DNA from: an uncultured virus (IMG/VR IMGVR_UViG_3300009688_000445)
Taxonomy: Duplodnaviria > Heunggongvirae > Uroviricota > Caudoviricetes
Strand: one strand, 5' to 3'
Length of the DNA: 64,000 nucleotides
IMG/VR virus record: IMGVR_UViG_3300009688_000445
The notes under the pieces are model-generated. The model was not told the DNA's origin and ran no database searches. It saw only the letters and a list, made by a program, of their open reading frames with translations. The stretch's first letter is position 1. Each line of letters opens with the position of its first letter. A program made the translations under genes and the position numbers. Shown here piece by piece: positions 40,758-64,000 of the stretch.

Positions 40758-43700
40758 ATGTATCATAATAGTTTATGTGAAAAATGTGGATTATGGAAGG
40801 ATGCTAAGCATCCTTGTGTTACAGGAAGAGGCGATCCATCAGCAAAATTACTTATTTTAGGAGAAGCCTTAGGAGAACAAGAGGACTTACAAGGATTACC
40901 TTTTGTAGGTTCTTCTGGACAAAGACTACAAGCATATCTCGATAGATTAAATATCAAATATTATATAAGTAATGCTGTAAAATGTAGACCTACTTCTAAA
41001 AGTTTAAATAGAAAAGGTGAAACTATTCTTCATAATAGAACACCTACTGCTAAAGAAATAAAATTATGTTCAGCAAAAACATATCAGTTAATAGATAAAA
41101 TAAAACCTACTGTAATATTAACTCTAGGATCTATACCTGTAACTCAATTATTACATTTGGGTCTAAGTATGACATCTGTTCGTGGAAGAACGTATTATCA
41201 TCCACAATTAGAATGTCATATTGTACCTACTTGGCATCCTGCTTATTTAGGATACAGTGGAGATAAACTTGTAGAAAAGCAATTTATGCAAGATCTTCAT
41301 CAGGCTATAGAATTATTAAAAGCACCCAGAGTAAGACAAATTAACTCTAATCCGAGATCACTTCAGGATCCTGTAGAAATTAAGGAATATCTGGAGTATT
41401 TAAATACTATTGAAGAATGTGCCATTGACTTAGAAACAACAGGGTTAAATCCTAGAAAAGATAGGATAACAGATATCTCTTTATGTGCAAAATGCGGTGA
41501 AGGTGTACATATAAGATGGATAGATATACTTCCATATTTTGAGTGCTTAAAAAAACTTCTAGAAAAACCAGAATTAAAATGTGTATTTCAAAACGGCAAG
41601 TTTGATACTGCTTTTCTAAAAGCTATTGGTATTAATGTAGCAAATTTTTATTTTGATACCCAATTGGCTTATCATACAACTACAATGACTTTTGAAGGTG
41701 AAGGAAAATCTCTTTATAGTTTGGAGGTTATGTCTTGGCTTTTAACAAGAGAAGGAAATTACAAAGCAATTCTAGAAGAATTTGGTGGAATAGCAGGTCA
41801 TCAAAATGGAATATTGCAGAAGAAAGCAGAGAAGAAAGAAAAGGAGATAAAGAAGGAACAAGAGAAGAAGGAAGAAAAGAAAAAAGAACAGAAGTCAGAG
41901 AAAACTAAACAAGTAATCAGAGTTCCAGTAGTAGAATGTAATTCTTTATTTGATGATATGGCAGAACCAGTAGTTAAAACTAATATCGCAAATGAATATT
42001 TTTCTCATTTATCTACTGAAGAAGATGGTAAATTTCTTGAAAAGTTTACACCAGCAAAGAAATTAAGAAGAACATTATTAGAAGAAGATCCAAATATTTT
42101 TATAATAAATGAAGAACAAGAAAAAGAATTACAGACTTATGTAACCTTTGTTTCAGACAAGCTTAAAAAGAAATTAGAATCTACAAAACTAACAGCTTTA
42201 GAGTATTATTCAGCAATGGATGCGGATGTTACCTTTCAAATTTATAAGAGATTGAAACCACAGATAGATTCAGAATTTAAAGAGGTATTTTATGATTTAA
42301 TTATGCCTCTTTCTTCTACACTACAACGATTAGAACAGAACGGTATTCTTCTAGATACTCCTTACATAGATATGCTTTTAGACGAGAATCGTGCTAGAAC
42401 AGCAGAAATAAAAAATTCTTTTTTTAAGAAAGTAAAGAAAGAATTTAATATGGATTCACCAAAAGAATTAAGAGAAGTTATTTATGATCATTTAAGAATT
42501 CCAGTAGAAGAAGAATATATGACTAATGGTGGAAAAAGTGGAGTAAAAATGCCTTCCACCGATAAAAATGCTATAGAGTATTTAGCTAAAAAACATCCTA
42601 TTTTAAATGGAATTGTAGAATACAGAAAACTCGAGAAAGAAAATTCTACATACTTGGATGGATTTAAAAATCATGTAGATCCTGTTACTGGAAGAATTCA
42701 TACATCTTTTTTGCAGCATGCTACCGCAACTGGCAGATTATCTTGTATAGCTGAAGGTACCAAGATTGCTATAGTAGGAGAAGAAAAAAATATAGAAGAT
42801 GTCCAACCAGGAGATTTTGTTTATAATTATGATAATGATGGAAATTTAACTATTTCTAAAGTATTAAATAAATCATATAGCGGATACGGTGATTGTGTAA
42901 GAGTTAAATGGCAAAGTTCAGGAAATGGAAAAATAGGTGAATTAATTTGTACACCTGAACATAGAATACTACATAAGTATAATGGCTGGACAGAAGCTAA
43001 AGATTTAAAACATTATGATAAGGTATATCACCTAAGAAAAGGAAAAACTTACTCTTATGATCCTCGTCCACGACTATATGGTACAAATTCTTTTTGTGAA
43101 GACGAACAAAGATTTATAAAAAGAGTATATTTTAAGGCAGATCCTAAAAAGACACATATTCATCATATAGATCACAATCCTTCTAATAACAGAATTTCTA
43201 ATTTGGAAATTTTAGATAGTGCTGAACATAATAGATATCATTCTAGATTGCTATACGAAAAAGGAATAGTTAGTGAAAGGCACATGCATACATCAGAAGC
43301 GCATGCAAAACGATTACAATCTTTAAAATATGGTAAAGATAATCCAACATATATTTATAAAACTAAAGAAGAACTTATTCAAATGTTAAAGGATGCCAAA
43401 GGTATAGTTACGCATATTCCAATGGATTTTTTAACATATAAACAAAAATGTGAAACAGAAGGTATCAATCTTAAAGAACTTTGTGACTGTTTCTCAAGAG
43501 GTAAGTTTTTTATTTCTCAAGAAGATGTTTTTAAAGTATGGGATAAATATAAAGATTATGAATATCCTATATATAGATGTGCAGGTGAATTGCATATAAG
43601 TCAAGATAAGTTTAAAAGATTATTAAAGTATTATGATATATCAACTAATCATGTAATTCTATCAGTTAAACCTGCAGGTAAATATCATGTTTGGGATTTA

Positions 43701-44534
43701 GAGATAGAAAATTATCCAAATTTTATTGCTAATGAAATCTGTGTTCATAATTCTAGTGCACCTAATACACAAAATATACCTAGAGATAACCGTATTCGTA
43801 ATATGATTATTCCTAGAGAGGGATGCAAACTTGTAACTGCTGACTTATCACAAGCAGAATTAAGAATTCTAGCTATGATGGCAGACGATAAGAAAATGAT
43901 AGATGCTTTTGCATCTGGATATGACTTCCATGCTTATACTGCATGTGCAATGTTTGGTATAAAACCAGAGATATTTGATAAAGAAAATAATCCAGATCAT
44001 AAAGCAAAACGATCTCTAGCAAAAAATATTAATTTCGGTATTGCGTATCAAATGTCAGCAAATTCATTAGCTTCAGATGTGAATATTTCATTAAAAGAAG
44101 CACAAGATTTTATTGACAAATTTTACAATACTTATTTTAATGTAAAAAGATGGATAGATAAAACAAAATCTTTTGCTTTAAAGAATGGATATGTACAAAC
44201 ATTGCACGGAAGACGTAGATATTTGCCGTATGTACACAGTTCAGATCAAAAAGTTCGTGAAGGTGCATTAAGGCAAGCCGTAAATACACCAATTCAAGGC
44301 ACTGCTAGTGATTGTGCTTGTTTTGGTCTTATTAGAATTCAAAAGTTTATAGACGAGAAACAGTTAAAAACAAAACCTATCATGATTATACATGATGAAA
44401 TTGTTCTAGAAACGCCTTTTGAAGAAGTAGAGTTAATGGTAGAAAAATTACCATATTTTATGACACAAAATTTACCAAAAGTAACAATTCCATTAGTAGC
44501 AGACGCAGAAGTTTTAACGAGATGGAAGAAATAG
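40758..44534 (+). CDS. polA: Family A DNA polymerase with N-terminal family-4 UDG domain and an intein
   Basis: UDG (CxxC, GEALG, PFVG, KCRP, WHPAY), 3'-5' exonuclease (DLETTG, QNGKFD, YSAMD), polymerase motifs TGRLS, DLSQAELR, KNINFGIAY, HDE. Confidence 0.95.
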   Translation: MYHNSLCEKCGLWKDAKHPCVTGRGDPSAKLLILGEALGEQEDLQGLPFVGSSGQRLQAYLDRLNIKYYISNAVKCRPTSKSLNRKGETILHNRTPTAKEIKLCSAKTYQLIDKIKPTVILTLGSIPVTQLLHLGLSMTSVRGRTYYHPQLECHIVPTWHPAYLGYSGDKLVEKQFMQDLHQAIELLKAPRVRQINSNPRSLQDPVEIKEYLEYLNTIEECAIDLETTGLNPRKDRITDISLCAKCGEGVHIRWIDILPYFECLKKLLEKPELKCVFQNGKFDTAFLKAIGINVANFYFDTQLAYHTTTMTFEGEGKSLYSLEVMSWLLTREGNYKAILEEFGGIAGHQNGILQKKAEKKEKEIKKEQEKKEEKKKEQKSEKTKQVIRVPVVECNSLFDDMAEPVVKTNIANEYFSHLSTEEDGKFLEKFTPAKKLRRTLLEEDPNIFIINEEQEKELQTYVTFVSDKLKKKLESTKLTALEYYSAMDADVTFQIYKRLKPQIDSEFKEVFYDLIMPLSSTLQRLEQNGILLDTPYIDMLLDENRARTAEIKNSFFKKVKKEFNMDSPKELREVIYDHLRIPVEEEYMTNGGKSGVKMPSTDKNAIEYLAKKHPILNGIVEYRKLEKENSTYLDGFKNHVDPVTGRIHTSFLQHATATGRLSCIAEGTKIAIVGEEKNIEDVQPGDFVYNYDNDGNLTISKVLNKSYSGYGDCVRVKWQSSGNGKIGELICTPEHRILHKYNGWTEAKDLKHYDKVYHLRKGKTYSYDPRPRLYGTNSFCEDEQRFIKRVYFKADPKKTHIHHIDHNPSNNRISNLEILDSAEHNRYHSRLLYEKGIVSERHMHTSEAHAKRLQSLKYGKDNPTYIYKTKEELIQMLKDAKGIVTHIPMDFLTYKQKCETEGINLKELCDCFSRGKFFISQEDVFKVWDKYKDYEYPIYRCAGELHISQDKFKRLLKYYDISTNHVILSVKPAGKYHVWDLEIENYPNFIANEICVHNSSAPNTQNIPRDNRIRNMIIPREGCKLVTADLSQAELRILAMMADDKKMIDAFASGYDFHAYTACAMFGIKPEIFDKENNPDHKAKRSLAKNINFGIAYQMSANSLASDVNISLKEAQDFIDKFYNTYFNVKRWIDKTKSFALKNGYVQTLHGRRRYLPYVHSSDQKVREGALRQAVNTPIQGTASDCACFGLIRIQKFIDEKQLKTKPIMIIHDEIVLETPFEEVELMVEKLPYFMTQNLPKVTIPLVADAEVLTRWKK
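42744..43751 (+). mobile_element. Intein (336 aa) with in-frame HNH endonuclease in polA
   Basis: TGRLS|CIAEGT..CTPEH..HHIDHNPSNNRISNL..VWDLEIENYPNFIANEICVHN|SSAPN. Confidence 0.95.
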
Positions 44535-60952: not shown

Positions 60953-61567
60953 ATGAATTCTAATGTAGAAACATTATATGTAGAATATACGCAAGAAAAA
61001 AATACTTTTAAGAAAGAAAGAATTCTAGGTAAAATATTTAAATGTTATGAACCTTTATCTAATAAACTTTCTTATAAATATTCCAGGATTTTCCCATCAT
61101 ATGAAGCAGAGGATTGGAAAATCTTGGTAAATCTAGGAATATGGGAAGGAGTTAATAAAACTCCTACTAAAGAATTAGTTAGAAAATATATCTACTTTAG
61201 AATAAAGCATCAAATTGCAAAAGAAATACAACTTATAACAGCTAGAAAGCAAACTTATTTTCATGAGGTAGAATTAGATTCTGTTATTATTTGTCCAGAA
61301 AATTCTGAAGAAACTCGTAAGATTACTAAATTAGATATAGAAGCTGCTATAAATAAATTACCAGATAAAACAAAACAGATTATTAAATTATGGATGGATG
61401 ATGTTCCAGTATGTCCTGATTCAGCCAAATCATCTTTAATGCAAGCATCAATATGTGATGAAGTTAATCTTTCTTTTCCAGCAGTTTACTTTAGATTAGA
61501 AAGAGCATTTGAATTGTTGTATTGTTATCTATCAGATTATAAGGAAAGTATTTATGAGGAATGGTAG
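60953..61567 (+). CDS. Phage sigma-70-family factor
   Basis: Region-2-like ED..LGIWE..YIYFRI and region-4-like AINKLPDK..ICDEVNLSFPAVYFRL. Confidence 0.65.
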   Translation: MNSNVETLYVEYTQEKNTFKKERILGKIFKCYEPLSNKLSYKYSRIFPSYEAEDWKILVNLGIWEGVNKTPTKELVRKYIYFRIKHQIAKEIQLITARKQTYFHEVELDSVIICPENSEETRKITKLDIEAAINKLPDKTKQIIKLWMDDVPVCPDSAKSSLMQASICDEVNLSFPAVYFRLERAFELLYCYLSDYKESIYEEW

Positions 61568-61766
61568 AAATATTTGTATCTATATGTCTGATTATAACCT
61601 TTATTGTTCTTTAGATAAAGAGGTTAGAGAACTATATTATAAAAAATATGGTCAAGCTCTTTCCAAAAGCGAAGTGATTAATAAAGGATTAGCAGTTTTA
61701 AAAGATACATTAACTAAATCAGAAAATCTTTCTGAGCTACCCAAATATAGCAGGATATTCAAGTGA
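61554..61766 (+). CDS. Small ribbon-helix-helix-like protein
   Basis: ICIYM strand followed by a helix and LSKSEVINKGL. Confidence 0.45.
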   Translation: MRNGRNICIYMSDYNLYCSLDKEVRELYYKKYGQALSKSEVINKGLAVLKDTLTKSENLSELPKYSRIFK

Positions 61767-64000
61767 TAATTTCAGATAAAATATATATTCCATTATGTAA
61801 GTTAGGTGCTAAAGCAAATGATTTAGCTAAGATTTTTACCTATCAAAATCCAGAATATTTTGAAAAATCTAAAATGGGTTTTAGCACCACAAAATGCAGT
61901 CCTTTTCTTGCACATTATGCTTTTCAAGAATCCGAAACAAAGGAAAAATGCATAGTAGTACCTAGAGGTGCTATTAAGAAAGTTAAAACTTTTCTAGAAA
62001 AGAATAATATATCCTTACGCCACTTAGATAACAGAAATGAAGGTAAAGATATAGATATCGAGTTAACAGACACAAGATTAGAACCCCAGCAGTTAGAAAT
62101 CATAGAGCTTTTAAAAGCTAATGAGGGTGGATTGATAGAAATGCTACCGGGCGGTGGGAAGACAATTGCTGCTTTGGGTTTTATCTCAAAAGTAAAAAAA
62201 TCTACTCTTATTCTAGTACATGAACATAGACTTAGAACACAATGGGAAGAAGAAATTAAAAGAAGACTTCAAGGAGATTTTACTTTAGGAAGATTAGATG
62301 GTGACGAGAAACGGGAAGGTGATATAACAATCGGAATTATTAATTCCGTTTATCTGATGTATAAAGAAAATAAAGATATCTTTTCAAAATATGGTGTAGT
62401 TATAGTCGATGAATGCTTTCCTTGGTATTCTAAAGTATTAACTAATTCTGGATATAAAAATATTAAAGATGTACAAAAAGGAGATATTGTTCTAACTACG
62501 AATGAGACTACTAAAGAATTAGAATGGAAATCTGTAGTTAACAATATACAAAAAAAATCAAGAAAAAATCTTATAAGTATAAAACTTAATAATGGTAAAA
62601 GTATTGTTTGTACAGAAGATCATAACATATATACTACTAAAGGATGGATATCAGCTAAAAATCTTGTATTAAATGATGAACTTATTACTGTGGATACTAT
62701 TATTTATGGAAGAACTATCGAGAAGAAAAAAGAAAAACAAAGTGATTGCAATTATTCCCTGTTACATTTGTGGAAAAGATGTGGAAATATTATCTGGAAC
62801 TCAAACAAAGGAAACTTACAGACTGACAGGAAGAGCATATTGTTCAAGGGAATGTTCAAAAGCTTATGTCAGAAAAACGAGCAGCGAGACAATGACAAGA
62901 ACAAATTTGAAATATCGAGATATTATTGTCAAAAGAATGTTGGAAAACAATCCTTCAAAGGATCCAGAGATAGCAAAAAAAGCTGTACAAAAAAATCGAG
63001 AAAATGGTACTTACGATTTAAATTGTTTCGAACATTGCGGAAATGGGCGGGCATGTTCAAAAGAACATCAATCTTTATTAGATTCTCTGAATTTCATACA
63101 AGATATTTGGATAAAAGAATGTCCAGTTCCTACCAAAATGGGAAGAACTTCAGGATATCCAACTTGTTACAAATTGGATATTGGTTGCAAAGAATTAAAA
63201 ATTGGAATAGAAGTAGATGGGGATACTCATTTAAACAAACAACAGATACAATTAGACAAAAAGAAGGATATATTCTTACAAGGATTGGGGTGGAAAGTAT
63301 TACGCTTTACTCACTCGCAGATTCACGAAAACTTGACATCTTGCGTGGCGAAGATTATGTCTATGATCTTACAATAGAAGATAATCATAACTATTTTGTG
63401 GAAAATATATTAGTACATAATTGCCATCATACACCAGCAAAAATGTTTGAATTAGTAGTAAATAATATACCTGCTAAATATAGAATAGGTTTAACAGGTA
63501 CTGTTAAAAGAAAAGATCAAAAAGAAATATTAATGTTCGATATTTTAGGCCCTGTTCTTATTTCTATAGGAGCAGAGGACTTGAAACATCGTGTTACTTC
63601 TTTTACCTATGAAATAGTAGAGACTAATTGTAAAATAGATGCACCTACAAGAAAACTATGGGCTGATGGTGCAAGAGTAACAAAAGTAGATTATGTTTCT
63701 CTTTTAAGCCTACTGGTTAAAAATCAGCAAAGAAATACTATAATTTTAGAAAAAATTATAGAATCCATAAAAGAAGGATATAAGCCTTTAATATTATCAG
63801 ATAGAGTAGATCATTGTAAATATCTTTATCAATATTTATTAGATTTAGGATATAATGTTGTATTATTAATAGGAGCTACACGCAAGCAATCTAATTGGGA
63901 AGAAATCAGACAAGATAATAGCATACAAGCTATTGTAGCACAGCGAAGCATCGCTGAAGAAGGTCTAGATTACCCTTCTCTATCCGCACTGCATTTAACC
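61763..64000 (+). CDS. SF2 (DExH) helicase, intein-containing, partial (runs off right edge)
   Basis: GTG 61763; PGGGKT, VIVDE|intein|CHH, GLTGT, LSDR, AEEGLDYP; no stop codon to base 64000. Confidence 0.9.
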   Translation, partial: MIISDKIYIPLCKLGAKANDLAKIFTYQNPEYFEKSKMGFSTTKCSPFLAHYAFQESETKEKCIVVPRGAIKKVKTFLEKNNISLRHLDNRNEGKDIDIELTDTRLEPQQLEIIELLKANEGGLIEMLPGGGKTIAALGFISKVKKSTLILVHEHRLRTQWEEEIKRRLQGDFTLGRLDGDEKREGDITIGIINSVYLMYKENKDIFSKYGVVIVDECFPWYSKVLTNSGYKNIKDVQKGDIVLTTNETTKELEWKSVVNNIQKKSRKNLISIKLNNGKSIVCTEDHNIYTTKGWISAKNLVLNDELITVDTIIYGRTIEKKKEKQSDCNYSLLHLWKRCGNIIWNSNKGNLQTDRKSILFKGMFKSLCQKNEQRDNDKNKFEISRYYCQKNVGKQSFKGSRDSKKSCTKKSRKWYLRFKLFRTLRKWAGMFKRTSIFIRFSEFHTRYLDKRMSSSYQNGKNFRISNLLQIGYWLQRIKNWNRSRWGYSFKQTTDTIRQKEGYILTRIGVESITLYSLADSRKLDILRGEDYVYDLTIEDNHNYFVENILVHNCHHTPAKMFELVVNNIPAKYRIGLTGTVKRKDQKEILMFDILGPVLISIGAEDLKHRVTSFTYEIVETNCKIDAPTRKLWADGARVTKVDYVSLLSLLVKNQQRNTIILEKIIESIKEGYKPLILSDRVDHCKYLYQYLLDLGYNVVLLIGATRKQSNWEEIRQDNSIQAIVAQRSIAEEGLDYPSLSALHLT
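62414..63421 (+). mobile_element. Intein (336 aa) inserted in the helicase DECH motif
   Basis: CFPWYSKV..CTEDH..GW..VYDLTIEDNHNYFVENILVHN|C. Confidence 0.95.
62673..63377 (+). CDS. DUF559/Vsr-like homing endonuclease nested in the +1 frame inside the intein
   Basis: CYICG, YCSRECS, NNPSKDPE, YKLDIG..IEVDGDTH..DKKKDIFLQGLGWKVLRF; possible starts at 62673, 62676 or 62706. Confidence 0.85.
   Translation: MMNLLLWILLFMEELSRRKKKNKVIAIIPCYICGKDVEILSGTQTKETYRLTGRAYCSRECSKAYVRKTSSETMTRTNLKYRDIIVKRMLENNPSKDPEIAKKAVQKNRENGTYDLNCFEHCGNGRACSKEHQSLLDSLNFIQDIWIKECPVPTKMGRTSGYPTCYKLDIGCKELKIGIEVDGDTHLNKQQIQLDKKKDIFLQGLGWKVLRFTHSQIHENLTSCVAKIMSMILQ

Follow-up and report, generated by a model that had tools for sequence, protein, structure and literature searches.

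The 64,000-nucleotide (nt) stretch of DNA analysed here, referred to below as the window, comes from an uncultured virus of the class Caudoviricetes (IMG/VR record IMGVR_UViG_3300009688_000445). It has a G+C content of 29.4% and a phage-like layout, with about 60 tightly packed open reading frames (ORFs) arranged in two divergent blocks. Near its end, the gene for a UvsW-type DNA helicase is interrupted by an intein, and a second gene, predicted to encode a homing endonuclease, is overprinted on the interior of this intein in the +1 frame of the same strand. The helicase frame runs from a GTG at 61763 to the end of the window at 64000 with 0 stops. The features of the region are the following:

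61763..62413, + strand: N-extein of the helicase, UvsW/ResIII-type, ending within motif II (Walker B) in VVIVDE; based on Pfam ResIII (6e-21) and DEAD and on the alignment with the intein-free locus L088
62414..63421, + strand: contiguous class-1 intein in the helicase frame, Cys1 ... TEDH ... VHN and then Cys+1; Pfam Intein_splicing 4.7e-20, free of stops
62414..62713, + strand: N-terminal Hint lobe, intein residues 1-100, blocks A and B; AlphaFold2 pLDDT (predicted local distance difference test) 95-98, all beta, with PT-HINT/Hint Pfam matches at residues 1-94
62673..63377, + strand: putative homing-endonuclease ORF in the +1 frame, 234 amino acids (aa) from ATG 62673 or 223 aa from ATG 62706, TAG at 63375-63377; from the ORF list, DUF559 1.2e-10
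62714..63262, + strand: linker read through in the intein frame, residues ~101-283, with no recognisable domain; pLDDT 43-57, no secondary structure, no Pfam match
62760..62855, + strand: zinc ribbon of the nuclease, C30, C33 ... C57, C61 (CxxC...CSxxC); CxxCG...CSxxC consensus conserved in alignment A1, strands 24-40 with pLDDT >90
63168..63365, + strand: predicted Vsr-like/EDxHD catalytic core, Y166 K167 D169 ... E180 D182 G183 H186 ... D195 ... G206 W207; invariant columns in A1, PDB profile and Foldseek
63263..63377, + strand: dual-function overlap, in which the last ~38 nuclease codons (C-terminal helix and conserved GW...R motif) encode, in the other frame, the beginning of the structured C-lobe of the intein; both models confident
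63263..63421, + strand: C-terminal Hint lobe, intein residues 284-336, blocks F and G, ending in YVYDLTIEDNHNYFVENILVHN; pLDDT 78-98, strands 284-299 and 315-335
63422..64000, + strand: helicase C-extein, beginning CHHTPAKMF, with Helicase_C, running past the end of the window; Pfam match at residues 662-741, collinear with the intein-free L088

On the translated helicase frame, the matches to ResIII and DEAD occupy residues 108-240, Intein_splicing (3e-19) residues 225-553, and Helicase_C lies at the far end. The N-terminal junction of the intein is formed by GAT GAA (DE) and the Cys1 codon TGC at 62414-62416. At the C-terminal junction, CAT AAT (HN) at 63416-63421 is followed by TGC CAT CAT (CHH), giving VHN/C at 63413-63424 (the slash marks the splice point here and below). 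Removal of the 336 codons in between is predicted to restore DECH, the helicase motif II. The assignment to class 1 is based on the Cys at position 1, the threonine and histidine of block B, the C-terminal HN with Cys+1, the PF14890 profile (72.4 bits, with a cut-off of 35.8), and the predicted Hint fold. Among 60 aligned inteins, C1, H70, and N336 are invariant and T67 is nearly so, as are V293, V316, Y317, Y327, V334, and H335 in the C-lobe. The block B sequence C-T-E-D-H, which contains T67 and H70, corresponds to the motif known as TxxH. The product of the intein frame was modelled by AlphaFold2 using the 60 aligned inteins, and the model contains two confident Hint lobes separated by residues 101-280, with a pLDDT of 43-57 and no secondary structure. 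Membership among split inteins, or fractured genes, was considered and rejected because the helicase frame contains no stop after the N-intein.

The insertion lies in a conserved motif of its host, and an allele without the intein exists. The closest non-identical helicase homologue, at locus L088, has an N-extein 69% identical to that of the window, lacks the intein, and reads IIDE/VHH. Such a sporadic presence fits a mobile element. The same homologue is followed, two genes downstream, by an ORF (L088:5721-6464) whose N-terminus is presumably that of a GIY-YIG-like endonuclease.

The +1 frame is closed by a TAA at 62670, right before the ATG at 62673, and the third frame contains many stops across the region. 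ATG 62706 aligns better with the relatives than ATG 62673. The ORF matches the Pfam family DUF559 (PF04480) at residues 166-231 with 41.6 bits, against a curated cut-off of 20.6. PF04480 is likewise present in all of 18 homologues called as separate proteins, which have free-standing length (138-257 aa) and 32-51% identity. E180, D182, H186, and D195 are invariant in the 19 sequences of the alignment built around the window nuclease (A1), and all 15 invariant family residues are present in the window copy. These four residues are presumably catalytic, as the name of the family suggests. The AlphaFold2 model of the nuclease has a mean pLDDT of 90.2. Its highest-ranking Foldseek matches are the catalytic domain of I-Bth0305I (3r3p), Vsr (1vsr), and a DUF559 protein (3hrl), with probabilities of 0.97-1.00 and target template-modelling (TM) scores of 0.38-0.77. 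The nuclease profile also matches 3hrl (E 2e-11) and 3r3p (E 0.01) in the PDB, and the N-terminal zinc ribbon and helical region gave no match to a solved structure. By sequence and predicted structure, the +1 ORF appears to be a complete gene for a nuclease with a zinc ribbon and a Vsr-like core (DUF559/EDxHD, PD-(D/E)xK type). The C-lobe of the intein begins about 38 codons before the nuclease stop, so that 63263-63377 encodes structured parts of both predicted proteins.

This description agrees with a first-pass annotation made from the letters alone. The limits it had given for the helicase frame (from 61763) and for the intein (DE/C at 62414 to VHN/C at 63421) turned out to be exact. It had also described a frame without stops, a middle of the intein without a recognisable domain (given there as ~225 codons; about 180 residues are predicted to be disordered), and a complete zinc-finger and DUF559/Vsr nuclease with its own TAG in the +1 frame (62673/62706..63377), all of which are borne out by the stop count, the domain searches, and the models.

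Selection for two open frames

The length over which both frames stay open has no parallel in the rest of the window. In the same off-frame register, 61 other ORFs (19,136 codons) contain 0.125 stops per codon, i.e., one per 8 codons, and their longest open run is 62 codons (91 codons in the other register). Compared with these ORFs, the 234 codons open here have a probability of about 2.5e-14. When the nuclease was resampled synonymously with the codon usage of the window, the helicase frame acquired a mean of 26.2 stops and a minimum of 13 (20,000 draws). Permuting the nuclease's own codons among synonymous sites gave a mean of 14.1 stops and a minimum of 6, never 0.

The avoidance of stops takes the form of a strict codon rule. 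Pyrimidine-ending nuclease codons located before AA, AG, or GA end in C in 15 cases and in T in 0, compared with 11 C and 64 T in the rest of the ORF (Fisher 1.7e-10); in the other genes of the window, pyrimidine codons in this context comprise 447 with C and 2396 with T. A T at any of the 15 sites would produce TAA, TAG, or TGA in the helicase frame. The depletion of T-ending codons before these dinucleotides, proposed beforehand as a check on the overlap, is thus found in full, and the double openness is kept by selection.

The same sequence is recovered from other assemblies, where the compensating indels that the first-pass annotation had wanted excluded are absent wherever the contigs cover the region. 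Locus L002, from a different metagenome assembly, has 1 mismatch and 0 gaps relative to the window over 2,238 nt. Run X10, from another study, has contigs over 62392-62795 that differ from the window at 0 positions and contain 0 gaps, and the same holds for those of run X15 (an RNA library from yet another study) over 62538-62758 and 63275-63425. Of two further runs, X4 contributed no contig and X7 just two short stretches of an unrelated one, and neither entered the comparison; the segments 62973-63014 and 63203-63274 lie outside the coverage of the aligned run contigs. The two pieces from the X15 RNA library are no proof of transcription. In addition, window 62300-63500 is present whole (share 1.00) in contigs of seven runs from five studies, dated 2016-2022 and labelled as anaerobic digester, activated sludge, biofilm, or wastewater metagenomes, and all seven are possible sources of the window DNA. 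A blastn search of the region against GenBank phages returned no match.

The way in which selection is divided between the frames was measured on relatives of the window rather than on the window itself. In 28 pairs of related loci with a nuclease identity of at least 60% and a nucleotide identity below 99.5%, the differences at nuclease codon positions 1, 2, and 3 amount to 1252, 960, and 2263. Over the same columns, the nuclease frame has a mean identity of 72% and the intein frame one of 52%, and the former is the more conserved in 28 of the 28 pairs. Judging from these relatives, purifying selection would act on the nuclease frame rather than on the overlapping intein frame. The linker without structure, together with the lower identity of the intein frame, indicates that the middle of the latter is a spacer selected only for readability; over these ~180 codons, the intein frame appears to be selected only against stops and not for its peptide. 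The earlier proposal of selection on both frames is accordingly retained with a qualification: the intein frame is selected against stops (15 C to 0 T here, 876 C to 0 T in the pooled relatives described below), but the peptide encoded by its middle is not selected.

Relatives, host genes, and the fixed register

A profile search of IMG/VR with the nuclease alignment yielded 393 relatives, the best 80 of which were examined. The frame to which the nuclease is +1 has 0 stops across the whole nuclease match in 77 of these 80 viral loci. The host frame in those 77 is open for 1.4-4.8 kb, mostly 2-3 kb, and the remaining frame contains 5-34 stops. The same layout is found in 17 of 17 loci on bacterial genome or metagenome-assembled genome (MAG) contigs, which come from Cyanobacteriota, Chloroflexi/Anaerolineales, Riflebacteria, Bacteroidales, WWE3, Clostridia, Phycisphaerae, a Verrucomicrobium isolate, and Methylococcaceae. 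The G+C content of the surveyed loci ranges from 0.26 to 0.67. A nuclease in frame with both intein lobes occurs in 0 of the 80 viral loci, and the combination that had been named beforehand as speaking against the overlap (homologues with an in-frame nuclease and the other frame full of stops) was not seen among them.

The codon rule is absolute in this larger set. After the removal of 12 near-duplicates and 3 exceptions from the 80, the nucleases of 65 unique viral loci have 876 pyrimidine codons with C and 0 with T before AA, AG, or GA, compared with 1392 C and 2435 T elsewhere. Host-frame codons outside the overlap served as a control and have no such bias (2472 C and 2520 T in this context, 6328 and 7085 otherwise).

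The three exceptions among the 80 (L028, L029, and L031) are free-standing, intergenic copies of the nuclease. Two of them (L028:2959-3597 and L031:2995-3636) are located directly upstream of helicase genes, with their 3' ends overlapping the helicase start by about 30 nt, and this placement recalls, by analogy, the stand-alone inserts of Dassa et al. 2009. A different arrangement is found in L056 (2353-3700), where the helicase N-extein and the N-lobe of the intein run in frame into the nuclease, which lacks its first CxxC. The frame of the C-lobe and C-extein of L056 is open only from 2943, some 20 codons upstream of the nuclease match. A recent indel, decay of the copy, or a form resembling fractured genes could account for this locus. 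In the Anaerolineales/Chloroflexi contigs L102-L106, the host frame around the nuclease is open for >3.8-5.9 kb and the helicase-type DE/C junction pattern was not found, so that the host is probably a different, larger gene.

The host proteins were examined by scanning 66 of the 74 unique host ORFs, setting aside two that match the window exactly, three near-duplicates, and three exceptions that lack a host ORF. They comprise 54 ResIII/Helicase_C helicases, 5 SNF2-type ATPases, and 7 DNA_pol3_delta2 clamp-loader ATPases, and 59 of the 66 have Hint or Intein_splicing matches at E<=1e-5. Across the 65 unique loci, the N junction is DE/C in 58 and EE/C in 1; an EA/C pattern match in L022 was judged spurious, and no match was found in the other 5, four of them cut at the 5' end (L016, L060, L063, and L076) and the fifth being L056. 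The C end is HN/C in 61 and SN/C in 4 of the 65 relatives, and in all 65 the nuclease stops 4-24 codons (median 16) before the end of the intein. From the junctions and host families together, it follows that the same intein-plus-nuclease module occupies the Walker-B acidic pair of three ATPase families. Besides the overprinted intein, the helicases of L006, L012, and L027 contain another one located upstream, whose LAGLIDADG endonuclease is in frame (LAGLIDADG_3/Hom_end matches), and the host ORFs of L057 and L058 contain two intein signals each.

The constancy of the +1 register may have its reason in the genetic code. In this register, each host codon is composed of the third base of a nuclease codon and the next two bases, and a synonymous change from T to C suffices to remove any stop. 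A stop-free host frame can thus be reached synonymously in 68 of the 68 nuclease proteins examined. The other same-strand register leaves a mean of 2.9 unavoidable stops, and a stop-free frame is possible there for 2 of the 68. The +1 register would therefore be fixed because it is the only same-strand one in which all host-frame stops can be removed synonymously, with common descent as the alternative explanation.

With regard to expression, 63 of the 65 relatives have an ATG or GTG 2-19 codons (median 5) before the CxxC of the zinc ribbon, and 23 of these 63 have a Shine-Dalgarno core at -18 to -4 of that start, compared with 12.7% of background windows (p 1.3e-6). These starts fit a nuclease made as a separate protein, as the first-pass annotation had supposed.

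The element belongs to a large and mostly unannotated family. A tblastn search with the nuclease gave matches in 40 phage records of GenBank, 37 of them for Vibrio, 2 for Corynebacterium, and 1 for Pseudomonas, with Corynebacterium glutamicum ATCC13032 and Vibrio lentus among the hosts named. Among the 25 matches listed, the only annotated feature is a helicase or carries a generic name (hypothetical, coil-containing, or P-loop NTPase). In the two records in which the layout was checked, those of Vibrio phage CP-T1 (gp10) and phage 159E43-1b, the nuclease match lies +1 of the helicase CDS, and the annotation contains no nuclease gene. The expectation that ordinary annotation would miss this architecture is thus borne out in records of isolated phages, where only the helicase CDS is annotated over the nuclease. 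In this way, a whole class of homing endonuclease genes escapes standard annotation.

Two further observations concern the genes of the window itself. The GTG at 61763 that starts the helicase overlaps by 4 nt (GTGA) the stop of the preceding 85-aa ORF (61509-61766), which suggests that the helicase is translationally coupled to it. At 40758-44531 (+ strand), the window encodes a protein of 1258 aa that combines domains of UDG (residues 23-175), a 3'-5' exonuclease, and a family-A DNA polymerase. Another intein (Intein_splicing, residues 727-998), with an in-frame HNH_3 endonuclease at 796-826, interrupts the polymerase. The same phage therefore holds one canonical and one overprinted intein.

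Proposed mechanism and competing explanations

The reading favoured here, at a probability of roughly 85%, is that of a mobile intein at the DE/CH site of a UvsW-like helicase, whose homing endonuclease is not an intein domain but has a gene of its own, overprinted on the intein interior in the +1 frame. Ribosomes on the helicase frame would traverse the nuclease gene, joining the Hint lobes by a disordered linker, free of stops and about 180 residues long, and the intein would then splice out together with this linker, restoring DECH. Reading through the nuclease, followed by splicing, is proposed because there would otherwise be no reason for an open frame in a replication helicase that looks essential. 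Judging from the selection against stops, the intein is probably splicing-competent. The Vsr-like/EDxHD nuclease would be made alone, most likely by internal initiation at ATG 62706 or 62673, and may cut intein-less alleles, such as the DEVH allele of L088, thereby driving homing. Selection forbids NNT codons before AA, AG, or GA in the nuclease frame, and in this manner keeps the helicase frame open.

Several points weigh against this reading. No Shine-Dalgarno-like sequence precedes ATG 62673, 62676, or 62706 in the window, compared with its presence in 21 of the 39 + strand genes, and nuclease expression may therefore be very low or absent here. The in-frame fusion of N-lobe and nuclease in L056 means that other arrangements, or decay, do occur. 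The survey covers the best 80 of the 393 viral relatives, and the 28 pairs of the substitution test are not mutually independent. In the Foldseek search with the whole nuclease model, no match reached E<=1e-3 (best E 8e-3 to 2e-2), and the ranking was used instead. Expression, splicing, and cleavage by this particular element are all predictions from sequence.

Among the competing explanations, an artefact of assembly or sequencing is the default suspicion whenever a metagenome assembly contains a change of frame. In this case, an ordinary in-frame endonuclease would be hidden by two compensating indels (near 62680-62710 and 63300-63380), and L056 illustrates that an upstream frame change is possible in one contig, but nothing else speaks positively for it. 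L002 has no gaps, the X10 and X15 contigs span both suspect places without gaps, and neither indels nor sequencing errors could generate the avoidance of T at 15 of 15 sites, or recur in 94 of 97 loci with 26-67% GC, none of the 80 viral ones having the nuclease in frame with both lobes. This makes an artefact hardly conceivable. A long off-frame ORF overlapping a degenerate intein by mere chance is already refuted. Such ORFs do occur in the window, up to the 62 and 91 codons given above for the two registers, but the probability of about 2.5e-14, the Pfam match above its curated cut-off, and the conservation of the layout in the 94 loci leave no room for this explanation.

The remaining two alternatives concern how the nuclease is used. 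It could be a silent relic, with only the intein frame in use in this phage and an element that no longer homes, as would fit the missing Shine-Dalgarno signals and the endonuclease decay after fixation that the homing cycle predicts, according to the accessible part of a preprint by Phillips et al. 2026 (10.64898/2026.09.14.751524). The ORF is nevertheless of full length and keeps every one of the 15 invariant family residues, its model is confident (pLDDT 90.2), the substitutions of the relatives concentrate on nuclease third positions, and a close homologue without the intein exists as a potential target, all of which make a relic improbable. Slightly less probable still is programmed +1 frameshifting, by which the nuclease would be produced as a fusion to the N-extein and the N-lobe instead of by internal initiation. 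The weak initiation signals of the window favour this possibility, and L056 encodes exactly such a fusion in frame. On the other hand, the +1-frame TAA at 62670 directly precedes ATG 62673, the relatives have their own ATG or GTG before the zinc ribbon in 63 of 65 cases with an enriched Shine-Dalgarno core, free-standing relatives of the same length exist (L028, L029, and L031), and the 18 homologues of 138-257 aa are called as separate proteins. No conserved slippery site was seen either, in an analysis that included no search aimed at one. An overprinted endonuclease gene with its own start therefore remains the preferred reading.

A broader proposal can be built on this reading, for which the chances are judged to be about even. 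According to it, a Vsr-like nuclease overprinted in the sense-strand +1 frame on a mini-intein would be the main natural form of this endonuclease clade, a single ancient composite element that moved among the Walker-B DE/xH sites of at least three ATPase families (UvsW-type helicases, SNF2 proteins, and clamp loaders), with its +1 register dictated by the genetic code. It would represent the contiguous intermediate lacking in the model of Dassa et al. between mini-intein, fractured gene, and canonical intein, and would imply that the Hint domain tolerates a disordered linker of about 180 residues.

The system is also of interest as a case of overlapping genes in which one frame is selected for its protein sequence and the other only for the absence of stops, apart from some 38 codons that are structured in both. 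From a practical point of view, inteins would tolerate a long unstructured insert, the DE/C Walker-B site may be a permissive insertion point, and the nucleases, whose cleavage activity is predicted, could form a large untapped set of site-specific enzymes.

Comparison with known systems

The class of architecture, i.e., inteins with out-of-frame or antisense endonucleases, is already in print. Actinophage inteins with antisense LAGLIDADG genes, antisense VSR-like genes, and "frame 3" endonuclease-VII-like genes are described in a preprint by Gosselin, Arsenault, and Gogarten 2025 (10.1101/2025.01.02.630785), which states that, apart from these, VSR-like endonucleases were known from split inteins only. 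The 2026 preprint of Phillips, DeSimone, and Gogarten (10.64898/2026.09.14.751524) reports a LAGLIDADG gene lying out of frame in the cyanobacterial dnaX intein and calls this layout a rarity. Both preprints cite Gorbalenya 1998, "Non-canonical inteins", and Gosselin et al. do so for the first such inteins. The element of the window shares with these non-canonical inteins a contiguous, apparently splicing-competent intein, with an uninterrupted intein/extein frame and a complete homing endonuclease gene (HEG) off that frame between the splicing blocks. Purifying selection on the HEG frame, here detected in the relatives, and an origin proposed to lie in a free-standing HEG that invaded a mini-intein are further common traits. 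Unlike the published cases, the HEG is VSR-like/EDxHD and lies on the sense strand in the +1 frame; and whereas those cases are called rare, this one is found at the Walker-B DE/C site of helicases, SNF2 ATPases, and clamp loaders, with the layout kept in 94 of 97 related loci.

The catalytic core of the nuclease is predicted to share its fold and motif with I-Bth0305I and E. coli Vsr, the top Foldseek matches of the model (3r3p and 1vsr). The gene for I-Bth0305I, the EDxHD prototype (Taylor et al. 2011, PMC3239194), lies in a group I intron of a phage recA and not in an intein. Another relevant case is the ShiLan insertion, an HNH endonuclease encoded out of frame within a phage methylase ORF (Arsenault, Gosselin, and Gogarten 2025, PMC11855218). 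It has in common with the present element a hidden HEG overprinted out of frame and a host frame that is stop-free through the insert, but it lacks a splicing domain, so that the insert stays as a loop in the host protein, and its endonuclease is HNH and not Vsr-like. A VSR endonuclease flanked by Hint domains is also mentioned in a preprint on translational bypass (10.1101/2022.08.31.505936), the accessible part of which says nothing on reading frames. In the literature searched, no report was found, in the accessible parts of the sources, of a contiguous intein with a VSR-like gene in the sense-strand +1 frame, of the codon rule, or of this abundance, and the supplements of the preprints could hold sense-strand VSR-like cases. 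Relative to that literature, the new elements are the abundance of the arrangement, the absolute codon rule, and the rationale that the genetic code offers for the register.

The closest counterparts by nuclease family are the fractured genes of Dassa, London, Stoddard, Schueler-Furman, and Pietrokovski 2009 (PMC2677866), in which members of the Vsr-like family are free-standing genes between the halves of split inteins; Vsr-like and GIY-YIG endonucleases are stated there as not known in inteins. Both systems contain the same Vsr-like family of putative homing endonucleases, on the same strand and within an intein that interrupts phage genes for DNA metabolism. In the fractured genes, the nuclease ORF shares 6-69 bp at its 3' end with the C-intein, and in the relatives of the window its stop lies 4-24 codons before the end of the intein. 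The differences concern the host gene, which in the fractured genes has a stop after the N-intein, a spacer of 27-51 nt, a separate start for the C-intein, and trans-splicing, and which here is contiguous and stop-free. The overprinted intein supports a sequence of events in which the splicing domain comes first and the endonuclease invades later, and it links contiguous inteins to the route that leads to fractured genes and split inteins.

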